Source: Oscillospiraceae bacterium (lineage in GTDB: Bacteria > Bacillota > Clostridia > Oscillospirales > Oscillospiraceae). Taken from it: DNA of 64,000 bases. The translations under genes were made by a program, and so were the position numbers. This document shows positions 269-8,128 of the stretch, one piece after another. Location: the NCBI GenBank assembly GCA_017541825.1, contig JAFXYJ010000043.1, forward strand, positions 17,154 through 81,153, written 5' to 3'. Below the pieces are notes generated by a model. That model saw nothing but the letters and a program-made list of their open reading frames with translations. It ran no database searches and had not been told where the DNA came from. Positions within the stretch are counted from its first letter, which is position 1. Every line of letters begins with the position of its first letter.

Positions 269-3200
269 ATGAAGAACAGTCTGAAACGGATCACAGCCAT
301 GCTCCTTTGCGTGGTGATGTGCGTGTCCATGCTCCCCGTGAGCGCGCTCGCCGGCGACGAACCGGACGCGGAGACGGAGGAGCAGGGAGCCGCCGCCGTC
401 CTGCCCGAACCGCAGGAGGACGAGCCGGAGGAGCCTCAGGGCGCGCAGATCGGCGAACCGGAGCCGGACCCGGAAACCGAGCCCGCCGGGGAACCGGAGG
501 AGACTCCTGCCGAAGAACCGGAGCCCGAACCGACGGAGGAAGCCGAAGAAGCTTTGGAGACCGAACCGGAAGCCGGGCCGACCGACGAACCCGGGGAGAT
601 CCCCGCCGACGAGCCGACGGACGAGCCCGTCGAGGAACCGGCGGACGAGCCGACGGACGAGCCGACGGACGAGCCCGTCGAGGAACCGGCGGACGAGCCC
701 ACGGAGCCCGACGAGCCCACGGAGCCCGACGAGCCCACAGAGGCCGACGAGTCTGCAGAGGCTGTGGAGCCCGACGAGCCCATGCGCGGCGGGACGAGAG
801 CCGCGGCCTCCGGCACCTGCGGTGATAATCTGACCTGGACGTTTTTCGACAACGGCCAGCTGACCATCAGCGGCAGCGGCGCCATGGACGAGAGCGGACT
901 TACGCCATGGTACAGTTATCAGTATCAGATCAAATATGTTTCGATCAGCGAGGGCGTTACGACGCTGCGGGCGGCGGCTTTTCCGAATTGCTCCGCATTG
1001 ACGACCGTCAGTTTGCCGAGTACTCTGCGATCCATCGGGGAAGGCGCGTTTATCGGCTGCCGCGCCCTTACAGAGGTGACGATCCCCCAGGGCGTGACAT
1101 CCATCAGTCCGCAGACTTTTTCCGGCTGCAGGGCGCTCGCGAGCGTGACGATCCCGGATTCGGTGACGTCGATCGGAAGAAGGGCTTTTTATGAATGCTA
1201 CGCCCTTACCGAGGTGACGATCCCCGGGCATGTGACTTCGATCGGCAGTGAAGCCTTTTGGGCTTGTTCCGGGCTGACAAGCGTCACGATCCCGGACAGC
1301 GTTGAGACCATTGCTGATGGAGCGTTCTATTTTTGCAGAAACCTGCAGAGCATAGAGCTCCCGTCGACGCTGACTGCCCTCGGGGCGAATGCACTGCGGT
1401 CAACAGCTCTGACGAGCGTGACCATTCCCGCCGGTATCACATCGTTGAGCGACGGGCTGTTTGTCGACTGCCAACAGCTTACGAATGTAACTATCCACTC
1501 CGGCGTCACCTCCATCGGCAGCGCCGTTTTCTCCAACTGCACCGCGCTGCAGTCCGTGACGATCCCGGCCAGCGTCACATCAATCGGAGAACTTCCGTTC
1601 CTTCAGTGCTCCGCGCTGACAGCCATCAATGTGGTGAGCGGGAATCCCGCCTACCGCAGTGTGGACGGCGTCCTTTTCACTGCTGACGGGACAACGCTGC
1701 TGGTGTATCCCGCCGGCAAGACCGAAACGTCCTACATTATTCCCGAGGGCGTGACCGCCGTCGGTGACTCCGCCTTCTCTTTTGCTGAGGCGCTCACGAG
1801 CGTGACAATCCCGGTGAGCGTTGTGAGCATCGGCAACGAGGCTTTCGGCGGTACGGGGCTGACAAAGGTGTTCTACGGCGGCACTGAGGAGCAGAGGGAA
1901 GGGATCACCTTCAGCGGGGGAGGTCACTCCCAGATAAACAATGCCAATTGGAATTATGTTCAGGAATCAACGTTCGTCGCCGAGGGCGAATGCGGCGACA
2001 ACCTGCACTGGACGCTGGACGAGAACGGCCTGCTGACCATCACCGGTACCGGGGACATGTACGACTATACGTCCAACAGCGACGACAAGCCCTGGGCAGA
2101 CTATGCCGACGACATCAAGGCCATTGTCGTTTCCTCCGGAGTGACCGGCATCGGCAACTATGCATTTTCGTCGCTTGCCGATCTGATAAGCGTTTCGATC
2201 GATGACGGCGTGACGCGCATTGGGGAAGGCGCGTTCAGTACCTGCGATTCCCTCACGAGCGTAACGATCCCCCGGGGTGTGAACGAGATCAACCGGGATA
2301 CGTTCAGAAACTGTACAGAGCTCGTGAGCGTGACGATCCCGGACAGCGTGGCGAGCATCGGCAACAGTGCTTTTTACGACTGTGACGGGCTTGACGCGGT
2401 ATATATCAATGATCTTACAGCCTGGCTTGGGATCAGCTTTTCAAACTTTTATTCCAACCCGCTTTATTACGCGCACGATCTGTATGTGAACGACACATTG
2501 CTTCAGGAACTTGTTATTCCGGACGGAATAACAAGCATCGGTATTTATGCCTTCTATAACTGCAGTAAGCTCACGAGCGTAACGATCCCGTCAAGCGTGA
2601 CGAGTATCGGCGAGTCTGCTTTCTCCGGCTGCAGCGGACTGACGAGCGTGACGATCCCGTCGGGCGTGACGAGCATCGGCAGCTGGGCCTTCTCCGGCTG
2701 CAGCGGGCTGACGAGCGTGACGATCTCGTCGGGCGTGACGAGCATCGGCAGCGGGGCCTTCTCCGGTACGGGGCTGACGAGCATAACGATCCCCGATGGT
2801 TTGACAGGCATCAGCAGCCAGGCCTTTTACGATTGCAGCAGTCTGACGAGCGTGACGATCCCGGTGAGCGTTGTGAGCATCGGCAACGATGCCTTCTCCG
2901 GTACGGGGCTGACAGAGGTGTTCTACGGCGGCACCGAGGAGCAGAAGGAAGAGATCACCTTCAGCGGGACAGGACACACCGAGATACGCAACGCTACTTG
3001 GCATTATGAGCAGGGAGCCTCCATCGTCGCCGAGGGAGAATGCGGTGAGAACCTGCACTGGACGCTGGATGCCGACGGTGTGCTCACCATCTCCGGCACC
3101 GGGGAGATGTATAATTATAACGGTGATGATAATCCATGGAATGAGTACACGACATCGATCAAGTCGATTGTTGTCAACGAAGGTGTTACCAGCATTGGAG

Positions 3201-6200
3201 ATTATGCTTTCTATGAGTGTCATCTTCTGGCGAGCATCACTATAGCGAATAGTGTGTTCAGCATAGGGAAATACGCATTTGCGAGTTGCTCTTCACTAAC
3301 AAGCGTCTCGATCCCTTATGGAGTGACAAGCATTAAGGATTCTGCGTTTTTTGCTTGCACGGCTCTGAGCGACATCTCGATACCGAACAGCGTAACCGTC
3401 ATTGAGTGTTCCGCCTTCCAAGGGTGTGCCTCGCTAACAAGTGTTTCGCTTCCTGAGAGTGTGATCTCCATCGGGGATGCCGCGTTCTTTTCCTGTACTT
3501 CTTTGACGGACGTTATTATACCGGAGAGCGTTTCCAGTATTGGGGATTATGCTTTTAGGGCTTGTTATTCTCTTACATTCGTTAGTATACCGGATGGTGT
3601 GACTGGCATTGGGGTTCTTACATTTGATGCTTGCCGTTCTCTGACGAGCATAACGATTCCAAACAGCGTAACGTACATTAGTGGCGGCGCCTTCTCGGGG
3701 TGTTCTTCTTTGGCGGATATTATTATTCCAGATAGCGTGACTAGTATTGGGGATAATGCATTTAGCAATTGCTCCTCTTTGACTAGTATTTCGATACCCT
3801 CCGCCGTTACAAGCATTGGCAATTTCCCGTTCAGAGGCTGCACGGCTTTAACTGCCGTTTTAGTGGCAGAAGGAAACGAATATTATTACAGTGACGGAAT
3901 ATGCTTGTATAACAACGAAAAAACTACCTTGATCTTTGTTCCCGAAGGAGTTTTGGGAGAGCTGCGTATTCTTCTAACCACTACAACAATTGATACTGCT
4001 GCGTTTTATCATTGTTCCTCATTAAATAGTGTCACGATTCCTGACAGCGTGACAAGAATAGAGATCAATGCTTTTCTCGAGTGCGCATCGTTAAGGACAG
4101 TGCACTATCTTGGCACTTCAACACAAAGGGGCGCCATCTCCATCGGACGGGGTAACGATTTACTAACCAATGCGACATGGTATTGCGTGATTGCTTCCGG
4201 ACCTTGCGGAGATAACCTCATTTGGAAGCTGGATGAAGGCAACTTGATTACTATTTCCGGAACAGGGGAGATGTACGATTATTCATCTGCCGAAAACGCC
4301 GCATCGCCTTGGTATAGTTTTTGCCGTAGTATAAAAAAGGCTGTCCTCGATGATGGAGTGACGAGCATTGGGGATTATGCCTTCTATAACTGTTCTGCTC
4401 TGACAGATATCATGCTCCCGGATAGTGTGATACGCATAGGAAATGCTGCATTCTATAATTGCGGAGGTTTAACTAGAATAACGATCCCCGATAATGTGAT
4501 AGCTATCGGAGACAGTGCTTTTCGTGCATGCCAAGCCTTAACGCATATCGCGATTCCGAGCGGTGTTATCAGCATAAGCAATTCTGCCTTTTTGACCTGC
4601 ACTTCTTTGAAAAGCGTTACTATTCCGGACAGTGTTACCAGCATTGGTGAATATGCATTTGGAGGATGCTTTTCTCTGACGAATATCACCATTCCGAACA
4701 GTGTAACCAGCATCGGGGATTGGGCGTTTTATCATTGTTCTTCATTGACGAGCATCAGTATTCCGGATGGTGTCACCAATATTGGTGATCGGGCTTTTTA
4801 TCTTTGTTCTTCATTGACGGACATTTCAATCCCGACCGATGTAATCAGTATAGGAGAATCAGCCTTTTATGGTTGTTCTTCCTTGGAAAGCATTTCGATC
4901 CCGGCTGGTGTAACCGCAATAGGGGAATCAGCTTTTGAAGGATGCACCGCTTTGACAGGCTTCACGATACCGGACGGTGTAACTGTCATTAACTACAAAG
5001 CCTTTTGCAATTGCTCTGCCCTCACGAGCATCACGATCCCGTCTGGTGTGACAAATATAGGGGAAGAAGCCTTTGGCGGCTGCAGTTCGCTGACCAGCGT
5101 ATTCTTTGAAGGTAATATGCCGGACATCGACAATACCGCGTTTACCGGCGTCGAGGCGACGGTGTATTATCCCTGCGGAGACGATACATATAACGAGCAA
5201 TCAATACAGCCGTATGGCGGAACGTTAATATGGAATAGAGCCCCCCACACACCCGGCGAGGCAGTGAAGGAGGACGACGTCGCACCTAACTGCACGGAAG
5301 CGGGCCACTATGATATGGTCGTATACTGCGCCGTCTGCGGTGGGGAGCTCAGCCGCGAGACAATCACGACCGGCGCAGCCCTCGGCCACACGGAGGCCGT
5401 CGACGAGGCGGTGGCGCCGACCTGCACGGAAACCGGCCTGACGGAAGGCTCGCACTGCTCGGTATGCGGCGAAGTGCTCGTGGCCCAGGAGGTCGTTCCC
5501 GCGCTCGGCCACACGGAAGTCACCGATGAAGCAGTGGCGCCAACCTGCACGGAGACGGGCCTGACGGAAGGGGCACACTGCTCGGTGTGCGGCGAGGTGC
5601 TCACCGCGCAGGAGACGATCCCCGCCCTCGGCCACACGGAAGTCACCGATGAGGCGGTGGCGCCGACCTGCGCGGAGACGGGTCTGACGGAAGGCTCGCA
5701 CTGCTCGGTGTGCGGCGACGTGCTTGTTGCGCAGGAGGTCATTCCCGCCCTCGGTCACAAGCCCGGCGAGCCGGTCATCGAAAACATGATCCCCGCGACG
5801 GCCGAAGCCGCCGGCAGCTACGAGGAGGTCGTATACTGCGCGGTCTGCCATGCGGAGCTCAGCCGCACCCTGAAAACGCTCATCCATATCGAGACCGCTC
5901 CCACGCTGGACCGGGATTATCTGGTCTTGACCGTCGGCGCCGATGAGGACGTCACACTGTCCGTGTGCGGCGTGGCGGACGAGTGGCTGCCCTTCGTCGA
6001 ATGGAGCTCCAGCGACGACAATGTCCTCACCGTGGAGGGCGGCCGCCTGACGGCAGTGGCCATGGGCACAGCCGACGCGATCGCGCGGCTAGATACCGGC
6101 GAGACGGAGTACATCCTTCGCTGCCGGGTGGACGTCATTGAGAACACCACGGTCGCTGAAGACATCGAATGGCGCGAGAACGGCGCCGTGCGTCTGACCT

Positions 6201-8128
6201 CGACAAAAGCCACGGTCCAGCTGTTCAAGACCGATTACACCCGCATCCAGATCATTCCGGTCCTATCGCAGAATCTGCCGCAGAATATGCGCGGCACGGG
6301 CGTCGCCATTGAAAGCGCGAGCTTTACCTCCCCGGCGGCAGCGGCGCTCTTTGACCTTCGGGTCGTGGACGACCGCACGCTGGAGATCGTGCCCACCGAG
6401 TCGGCGCTGAGCGCGCCCAAGCAGGTCAAGTCCAAATACACGACCGCCGTGACGGTCACGATCGACGGCCAGGAATTCACCACCGAAAAGAAGCTCACCC
6501 TGACCGTGAAAAAGAGCCTGCCCACGATCAAGGCCAAGGCCGTGAAGCTCAACAGCTTCTTTGCCGGCGACACGCAGCCGATCGTCTTCACCGGCGGCAC
6601 GGTGACGGCTGTGCGGCTCGCCGACGGCAGGACCGTGCCCGAATGGATCGCGCTCAGTGAGGACTGCAGGAGCATCGCTTACACAGGAACGCTCAACGCC
6701 AAGAACAGCGGCAAGCTGTATCTGACGGCGACGGTAGCGGGCTGGGCTGTGGAGCGCCCGGTGACGGTGTCGGTCGGCAGCGCGAAGACCGCGCCGACGA
6801 TCAAGCCGAAGGCGGCGACCCTGACGCTGTTGCCTGTCGGCGCGAACCATGTGAGCACCATTTTCAGCGTATCCCCGGCGGTATATACCGACGCCGAGCG
6901 CTTCCCGGTGACTGTGAGCTGCGTTACCGAGGGCGGCACGGCCAGCACGGCGCTGGATTGCTCGGTCGATGGGAACACACTCACCGTCCGGGCGGGGGCG
7001 GCGCTCGACACCGCCGCAGCGCACACCTTCAAGGTATACCTGTGCGTGGCAGGGGTTGAAAAGGCCGTCACCGTCAAGACCCTGCCCAAAGCAACACCAA
7101 CAATTACGGTCAAGGCCGGCGGCGCCTTCGACACGGCGATTCCGGGCAGCCCGATCAAGCTGACGGTCAGCATCCCCCGCGTATACTGCTGTGAAGCTCT
7201 GTCCGTACAGGTGCGGAAGATCGGCTCCGCGGGCGAAGTGCAGCACTTTGAGGAGGCGCTCGATGTTCGCGCCGAGCCCACAGCCGGCGGCGGCAGCATC
7301 GTCCTGTCCCTGACAGATCCCGCGCTGCTGGAGCCCGGCTGTGAGTGCAGGGCGATCGTCACGGCGACGCTCGAGGGAGGCGCTGCGGTCCGGTCCGCCC
7401 CGGTCAAACTGACGATCAAGCGCTCGGCTGCGTCCAAGGTCAAGCCCGCCGTCAGCCTCAAGGTCTCCGGCGGCATCGACGTGCTGCGGCCGGGCACCGG
7501 CGTCACGATCCGCCCGACGGTGAAGAACTACTACGGCGCGGCGCAGCCCGAGCTGACGGTGTACTACAAGCAGGGCAAGACCTGGACGCCCCTGACCCGA
7601 GACGAGAGCGGCCTGCGCTTCGCCCTGGGCGAAGAGACCGTGCTTGAAGCGGAATACTCCGCCGAAAACGGTTTCGTCCTGCGCCGTGCCGGCAAACTGG
7701 ATCACACGAAGAAATACGCGGTCAGCGTCGGCTATACCATCGACGACAGCAGCGAGGCCAACAACGGCGTATACGCGAGCAAGATCACGGCGATCACGGT
7801 CAAGCAGGGGAAGGTCAAGCTCACCCAGAGCGCCAAGACGGTGCAGCTGCTGCGGGACGACCGGTACAGCGAGGGCGTGGTGACGATCAGCTTCGCGGAC
7901 GGAACGCTGGCGGGGATCGACCGTGTGGTGCTGGTCTCGCCGAAGAACAAGGCGGGGGAGACGCTCTTCGAGCTGGAGGATCTGGGCTTCGGGCGGTACG
8001 CGATCCGCTACAGCGGCGGGCGCGTCACGACGACCAAGGCGGCCACGGTGAAGCTGCAGGTGTTCATGAAGGGCAGCACCGCGGCCAAGGCCAACGTCAC
8101 GATAAGCGTCAAGATCAACATAGGATAA
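269..8128 (+). CDS. Giant secreted modular surface protein (2619 aa): signal peptide, acidic P/E/T-rich linker, four BspA-type LRR arrays, Cys-motif repeats, Ig-like (Big_2-type) domains
   Basis: The N-terminus [29 protein letters not shown] looks like a signal peptide. There are many units of about 23 aa of the form VTIPxSVTSIGxxAFxxCxxLTSV (LRR_5/BspA-like). Four header modules read CG(D/E)NLxW..G.L.I(S/T)G(T/S)G.M. Three repeats of 41 aa each carry C-x10-C-x2-C. The C-terminal third is beta-rich and Ig-like. I saw no LPXTG, SLH or choline-binding anchor. Confidence 0.9.
   Translation: [2619 protein letters not shown]
2621..2758 (+). repeat. Two near-identical in-frame 69-bp tandem repeats (one LRR unit each)
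   Basis: Unit 1 (2621-2689) and unit 2 (2690-2758) differ at only 3 positions by eye. A degenerate third unit follows. Confidence 0.85.
5378..5746 (+). repeat. Three in-frame 123-bp tandem repeats encoding a 41-aa Cys-motif module
   Basis: ALGHTE(A/V)(V/T)DEAVAPTC(T/A)ETGLTEG(S/A)HCSVCG(E/D)VL(V/T)AQE(V/T)(V/I)P starts at 5378, 5501 and 5624. Related degenerate units flank the array. Confidence 0.85.

Follow-up and report, generated by a model that had tools for sequence, protein, structure and literature searches.

A probable xenologous leucine-rich repeat cassette within a giant putative surface-protein gene of an uncultured Oscillospiraceae bacterium

The DNA analysed here (the window) is a stretch of 64,000 nucleotides (nt) from contig JAFXYJ010000043.1 (positions 17,154 to 81,153, forward strand) of the Oscillospiraceae bacterium assembly GCA_017541825.1. 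Near its start lies a giant modular gene for a putative surface protein (269–8128, + strand), a single stop-free open reading frame (ORF) of ~7.9 kb and 2619 amino acids (aa). Its product begins with a signal-peptide-like N-terminus and an acidic Pro/Glu linker, continues with four BspA-type leucine-rich repeat (LRR) arrays and ends with Cys repeats and a C-terminal stalk. A low-GC block (3110–5239, + strand) holding arrays 3 and 4 is set off sharply from the rest of this gene, and we consider it likely that the block is a xenologous two-array LRR cassette, joined in frame into a resident giant gene by one double crossover. The genome is a metagenome-assembled genome (MAG) of 2.48 Mb in 167 contigs, with 62.6% GC, 92% completeness and 4.3% estimated contamination; by RecG its nearest relative is a goat-rumen MAG (85% aa identity).

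The composition step and its borders

In 300-nt windows the GC content is 0.42–0.49 over ~3000–5100 and 0.57–0.73 outside, and the in-frame GC content of third codon positions (GC3) is 0.61–0.87 upstream, 0.38–0.51 in the block and 0.77–0.96 downstream. A joint maximum-likelihood (ML) fit with two change points and three GC3 rates placed the block at nt 3110–5239 (codons 948–1657), with GC3 of 0.755, 0.454 and 0.854 before, within and after it and a gain of 162 units of log-likelihood (lnL) over no change. The 2-lnL support covers 3101–3122 (22 nt) for the 5′ break and 5236–5323 (88 nt) for the 3′ break. Recursive segmentation of the gene returned these same three segments only, and 300 permutations of the GC3 series gave a maximum gain of 10.9, against 142 for the observed series on the same coarse grid. 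Over the three codon positions the block has GC1/2/3 of 0.42/0.50/0.45, and its 2-kb GC of 0.469 falls in the lowest ~0.2% of 4374 genome windows. GC3 is 0.89–0.95 in the neighbouring housekeeping genes and 0.70–0.75 in the three remaining LRR_5 genes that this genome contains.

A preliminary description of this DNA, made from the letters alone, had placed an abrupt GC drop inside one continuous ORF at 3100–5240 and assigned it to LRR arrays 3 and 4. By windowed GC3 and by the change-point fit the drop is a step rather than a gradient, the fitted coordinates are close to those proposed, and the headers of the two arrays do begin there (aa 925 and 1313); the counts made by hand on single 60-nt lines (41.7%, 36.7%, 60.0% and 75.0%) were exact.

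The A/T-ending codons that the same description had noticed in the block are evident when its synonymous usage is set against that of the homologous arrays 1–2 (summed chi-square 158, 39 degrees of freedom, p 2.5e-16). Counts in arrays 1–2, block and C-terminus are, respectively, 0, 8 and 0 for TTA, 2, 18 and 0 for TCT, 6, 21 and 2 for ATA, and 8, 32 and 7 for ATT. The encoded protein is shifted in the same AT direction, with I/(I+V) of 0.64 in the block vs 0.50 in arrays 1–2 and a share of Phe, Tyr, Met, Ile, Asn and Lys (FYMINK) of 0.27 vs 0.21. Together, codon and amino-acid bias argue for a long residence of the block in an AT-richer genome.

The arrays also differ in their placement on an ML tree built from 36 arrays, in which array 1 is sister to array 2 (97/79). 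Array 3 groups with arrays of GC3 0.21–0.29 that come from a Eubacteriaceae MAG and from a same-order genome of low GC (92/84), and array 4 groups with a metagenome array (99/97). The highest identity of array 4 is to an array of Blautia ammoniilytica (59% aa in tblastn and 57% as aligned for the tree), which has GC3 of 0.45 in a locus of GC 0.44. These placements suggest that arrays 3 and 4 are not derived from arrays 1 and 2, with moderate support since the backbone of the tree is unresolved. Homologs of any of the four arrays are found nearly all in genomes of 35–47% GC. One of them deserves separate mention: in a same-order genome of GC 0.35, locus L371 (G026:C39:361-3252 and 3499-5559) carries an LRR_5 surface-protein gene convergent with recG, as in the window. 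It has a 964-codon open frame with GC3 of 0.24, and one of its arrays is among the nearest tree neighbours of array 3; its position by recG may be a coincidence or an old shared location.

The 5′ junction (3101–3122, + strand) lies within header 3, just after GTGEM, in keeping with the earlier placement of this boundary inside a conserved header. In a codon-level alignment of the headers the junction reads …ACC ATC TCC GGC ACC GGG GAG ATG / TAT AAT TAT AAC GGT GAT GAT AAT CCA…, and header 4, which is entirely in the block and was used as a stand-in for the donor header, reads …ACT ATT TCC GGA ACA GGG GAG ATG TAC GAT TAT. The sole string common to the high-GC side and the all-low-GC header 4 of array 4 is GGGGAGATGTA (~11 nt). 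Because header 4 is only a proxy for the header of the donor, microhomology at the left join is something we infer.

The composition break at this junction is at the same time a break in homology. The tail of array 1 with the first part of header 2 (1793–2061, + strand) is repeated, at 84.4% nt identity, by the tail of array 2 with the first part of header 3 (2843–3111, + strand), a copy of high GC whose similarity to the first stops at the composition break. Per 30-nt window, identity is 20–29/30 up to 3112 and then 14–19/30 (~50%) in full windows. Such a coincidence of the two breaks is as expected of a recombination endpoint. The tail-plus-header pair has a synonymous divergence (dS) of 0.31 and a nonsynonymous divergence (dN) of 0.14 (dN/dS ~0.45), and the array bodies that it flanks share just 42–45% aa identity, a pattern that suggests later duplication or gene conversion limited to the tail-plus-header module.

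At the other end, the 3′ junction zone (5236–5323, + strand) lies where the LRR cap ends (…TLIWNR), ahead of the first Cys module, and reads …TGG AAT AGA / GCC CCC CAC about 50 nt upstream of that module, that is, just ahead of the Cys repeats as had been described. This side is less sharp than the 5′ one, with patchy intermediate GC3 (~0.56–0.68) over ~4950–5323.

Origin of the block and competing explanations

A simple course of events would account for this anatomy. A two-array BspA-type LRR cassette would have had a long history in a genome with ~40–47% GC, and a double crossover would then have replaced resident modules with it or inserted it, with the left join in the header after GTGEM and the right join at the cap/Cys boundary. 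In this way the putative ligand-binding head modules would have been swapped, while the signal peptide, linker, older arrays, Cys repeats and stalk were retained, and selection would have kept the in-frame product. The joining was probably by microhomology-guided or homology-facilitated illegitimate recombination, because the homology between sequences of such different composition amounts to a few bases only. The direction would have been inward, and the transfer recent relative to the time that amelioration takes. The preliminary description had proposed an LRR cassette from a lower-GC donor acquired by recombination at the conserved header. Its foreign block and header breakpoint are supported, but the header homology is far too short for classical homologous recombination. 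It had also opposed a chimeric gene to slow amelioration; the gene does appear chimeric, but the contrast was drawn too starkly, since GC3 in the gene is layered and both processes probably acted.

Several observations weigh against an imported cassette. Neither the donor nor a near-donor was found in any database searched, where the best identities to the block were 45–59% aa. A nucleotide search of 40 relatives gave no match above 70% over 230 nt; peptide-seeded scans of 185,579 species genomes and of the Joint Genome Institute (JGI) metagenomes gave 45–59% aa at best; a set of 5.8 billion proteins gave at most 49% aa in the long and mid-length ranges; phmmer, run exhaustively over 1.84 billion representatives, listed none above 55%, in a ranking that the summing of repeats dominates; and plasmids and phages reached at most 45% aa to the block. 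As the synonymous sites of the block are still far from the host equilibrium, the true donor lineage should remain very similar to it. It is plausible that this donor is unsampled; the family is hypervariable, with 423,652 representative proteins at E ≤ 0.001.

Alleles lacking the block were likewise not found among conspecific or congeneric sequences, the 90% cluster consisting of near-clonal copies that carry it, and the stalk search gave no protein with another head at a stalk identity above 43%. None of the 19 same-genus species representatives has the gene at all, and the four assemblies in which it occurs are nearly clonal. With the gene missing and a different, unrelated gene content next to recG in every same-genus species examined, no empty-site or alternative-allele comparison is possible. 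Also on this side, arrays 1–4 draw on largely the same pool of distant relatives, all at most 59% identical, over the unresolved backbone of the array tree. Finally, among proteins that share the stalk, an AT-shift of the head against the stalk is seen even where host GC is low (locus L380, GC3 0.31 in the head vs 0.42 in the stalk), and part of the GC3 offset may be a property of the gene class and not of one transfer. Such a gene-class offset is modest, and it cannot yield a 20-nt-sharp step between homologous arrays. A proven mosaic would have a known donor and alleles without the block; as neither was found in these searches, the case for import is built on composition, on the anatomy of the breakpoints and on a phylogenetic incongruence of moderate strength.

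One could also read the polarity in reverse, the block being the remnant of a foreign LRR gene to which the N-terminus with arrays 1–2 and the Cys repeats with the stalk were added separately. Foreign-head/native-stalk fusions do occur: in the same-genus protein G012:C4 all of the first 1545 aa, from the signal peptide on, have a GC3 of 0.458 and sit on a stalk of 0.756 (lnL gain 104). Moreover, the tail-plus-header beside the junction is a duplicate (dS 0.31), and array 2 could be a later addition at an existing junction. This history would require at least two independent in-frame fusions, against one double crossover, and here the putative signal peptide and the linker have a native composition (GC3 0.79–0.87). 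We regard it as improbable.

Still less probable, to a marked degree, is that arrays 3 and 4 are old residents which diverged in composition where they stand, through relaxed selection, local AT-biased mutation or selection for slow translation. That LRR heads are AT-shifted against their stalks in several members of the family, irrespective of host GC, would fit such a process, as would the fruitless searches for a donor. It does not sit well with a step resolved to ~20 nt at the very end of an intragenic repeat, with the GC3 of 0.755 held by the homologous arrays 1–2 on the same transcript, with an amino-acid usage that is shifted too, or with arrays 3 and 4 not being sisters of arrays 1 and 2. 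Moreover, same-genus LRR_5 arrays have GC3 of 0.77–0.92 in G012:C5, G015:C34, G008:C144 and G016:C91 (intermediates have 0.56–0.73), and with arrays of GC3 0.8–0.9 in the genus, LRR coding alone does not force a low GC3.

Three further metagenome assemblies of the European Nucleotide Archive (ENA), from other samples and 99.7–99.9% identical to the window, contain this mosaic too. Two of them (ERZ27256873 and ERZ28018973) are k141-named contigs and the third (ERZ28654243) is a scaffold-named record, so that two assembly styles are represented. In all three the neighbouring genes are the same, with a SpoVB-like gene upstream and recG downstream. The differences consist of a 66-nt in-frame indel in the linker, 1–4 single-nucleotide polymorphisms (SNPs), none of them in the block, and one 20-N scaffold gap (ERZ28654243); with the four assemblies differing by 1–4 SNPs only, SNP density in block vs flanks is uninformative. 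At neither junction is there a repeat long enough to mislead an assembler working on a de Bruijn graph, the shared string being ~11 nt. An assembly or binning artefact joining the LRR reads of a low-GC organism into a high-GC contig, which the 167 contigs and 4.3% estimated contamination of the MAG and the repetitive nature of LRR genes might invite, is therefore hardly credible given the three further assemblies without a difference in the block, the brevity of the shared string and the frame, LRR phase and domain order that continue unbroken over both junctions.

The gene, its neighbourhood and the stalk family

The putative signal peptide and acidic linker (269–817, + strand) have a native-like composition (GC3 0.79–0.87) and are followed by the sister LRR arrays 1 and 2 (818–3040, + strand; headers at 818 and 1991; GC3 ~0.73–0.76). 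The low-GC block comprises the remainder of header 3, array 3, a low-GC tail with header 4 (from 4205), array 4 and the C-terminal LRR cap. After it come the Cys-repeat region (5240–5846, + strand), built of C-x10/11-C-x2-C units with a native-like GC3 of ~0.8–0.85, and the C-terminal stalk of ~760 aa (aa 1860–2619; 5846–8128, + strand), with GC3 of ~0.86. The array headers, at aa 184, 575, 925 and 1313, follow the pattern CG[DE]NLxWxL…G.LTI[ST]G.G.M. The protein matches Pfam LRR_5 (PF13306) with 1238.8 bits (curated cut-off 27.7, E=0) in 14 stretches, the best of which (aa 1435–1559) lies within the low-GC block, and by this profile it is assigned to the BspA/LRR_5 family, an assignment that the genome scan confirmed. 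Its N-terminus, MKNSLKRITAMLLCVVMCVSMLPVSALA, resembles a signal peptide when judged by eye. No anchor motif was recognised in the protein, LPXTG and GW anchors included, and the stalk has no Pfam match in a profile search of the protein. The name adhesin would follow from the protein family only, and the LRR arrays have a presumed binding role on the same grounds.

Two smaller features of the gene are worth recording. The linker carries a 66-nt (22 aa) in-frame length polymorphism at 644–709, in the acidic Pro/Glu repeat, which sets the MAG apart from two of the other assemblies and results in products of 2597 vs 2619 aa. In the Cys-repeat region, the unit GHTEVxDEAxAPTCTETGLTEGxHCSVCGEVLxAQE (window 5378–5750) recurs at ~85% aa identity in L011 (G026:C6), from a same-order genome of GC 0.42, as part of a different protein with a dockerin-like tail; this unit is apparently an independent, widely shared module. 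As a homologous cap-to-Cys junction in a low-GC genome that locus was rejected, being merely another Cys unit in a dockerin-tailed protein.

The neighbours within ~±8 kb code for an aminotransferase, a dehydrogenase, a P-type ATPase, the SpoVB-like protein, RecG and an ABC-F protein. No integrase, transposase or other mobility gene was seen among them, tRNA genes and direct repeats at the borders not having been scanned for. Insertion of a genomic island or mobile element was rejected, with both borders inside the reading frame and neighbours without mobility genes. Antigenic or phase variation from silent cassettes was also rejected: tblastn of the block against its own genome gave only matches of at most 45% outside the gene. 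Small low-GC islets (GC 0.34–0.42) do occur elsewhere in the genome (C5:3640-4686, C167:38999-40045, C44:41311-42357 and C11:2681-3601). Each has one ORF of ~300–350 aa, none LRR-related, and they are probably separately acquired accessory genes.

The stalk recurs in a paralog of the same MAG, on contig C8 (C8:12448-15972), at 45% aa identity, in the 2421-aa protein G012:C4 (L215, 46802-54063) at 43%, and in ~109 long proteins elsewhere at 27–43%. The heads it bears in this family include LRR_5, Lipase_3, VWA, PGAP1/LCAT-type lipases and Flg_new, and judging from these domain combinations the stalk has the look of an uncharacterised module that carries or anchors variable heads. In G012:C4 there is an additional low-GC domain of ~300 aa between LRR arrays and stalk (aa ~1200–1500, …SCHGMSAAAVL…GGHSVVAYG…), which by eye looks like a Cys/His peptidase-type domain.

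Differences in GC3 between head and stalk are found in several of these relatives besides G012:C4 and L380. The C8 paralog rises gradually from 0.35 up to 0.93, L379 has 0.55 in the head and 0.84 in the stalk (host genes 0.88–0.92), and L381 has 0.47 and 0.65. Recently acquired DNA is generally AT-richer than its host. In the present gene and its surroundings GC3 is layered, from host genes (0.89–0.95) through the stalk (0.85) and arrays 1–2 (0.755) to arrays 3–4 (0.454), and this layering is compatible with heads having been imported repeatedly from AT-richer sources and then ameliorated. A more speculative extension is that the stalk-sharing giant genes form a head-swapping system in gut Clostridia, in which near-native stalks repeatedly capture AT-richer foreign heads, the tail-plus-header module acts as an in-frame adapter for array exchange, and serial captures are recorded in the GC3 of stalk, arrays 1–2 and arrays 3–4. 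We hold this to be doubtful. The tail-plus-header is conserved at 84% within this gene only, relatives showing short pieces at 77–85%, and this confinement weakens the idea of a dedicated adapter.

Relation to known systems

No new mechanism or system is revealed by this gene. Its value is that of an unusually clean natural case of part-gene transfer, with modules of GC3 0.45 between flanks of 0.76–0.85 and a left breakpoint resolved to ~20 nt. If the cassette was indeed imported, uncultured gut and rumen Oscillospiraceae can alter their surface-recognition repertoire by taking up single LRR arrays over a large compositional distance, beyond the exchange of whole genes, and detectors of whole-gene horizontal transfer, like binning statistics based on GC, will misjudge genes of this kind. 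The contrast of head and stalk in several homologs suggests that mosaics are common in this class of giant surface proteins.

Listeria internalins are LRR proteins that diversify by recombination and module exchange, and they resemble the present case in that LRR modules, exchanged on a scaffold that is conserved, would determine the ligand. Their exchange, however, takes place within one genus of uniform GC, and they carry LPXTG or GW anchors, which were not seen here. Phage tail-fibre genes, with their swappable low-GC host-recognition cassettes, offer another parallel, a recognition head AT-richer than the host being exchanged on a conserved structural base; unlike them, the present gene has no phage context, its neighbours being the SpoVB-like gene and recG.

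For the BspA-type LRR family itself (Tannerella forsythia BspA) lateral transfer is reported, for example into Trichomonas (PMC2843621, PMC6701047). The repeat family is the same, the present protein is likewise a putative secreted surface protein with a presumed binding role, and the family is known to move between very distant organisms; yet the reported transfers are of whole genes or gene families, whereas here just two arrays within a gene appear foreign. Judged by title and abstract, none of the retrieved papers on BspA lateral transfer and mosaic antigens dealt with intragenic compositional mosaics in LRR proteins of gut commensals.

In form the gene is analogous to mosaic genes such as pneumococcal pbp2x/pbp2b, Neisseria penA and ospC. 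These too have a sharply bounded foreign block, an intact frame and resident flanks, in a surface-exposed or selected protein, and were seen through a discontinuity in composition or sequence. Their donors are known close relatives (typically >80% nt identity) and ordinary homologous recombination suffices, whereas the present gene shows a GC3 offset of ~0.3–0.4, flanking homology of a few bases and a donor that was not found. In-frame partial-gene horizontal transfer is nevertheless a known kind of event, and the gene described here is most likely an instance of it, matching both the mosaics produced by interspecies recombination and horizontal transfer at the level of domains.

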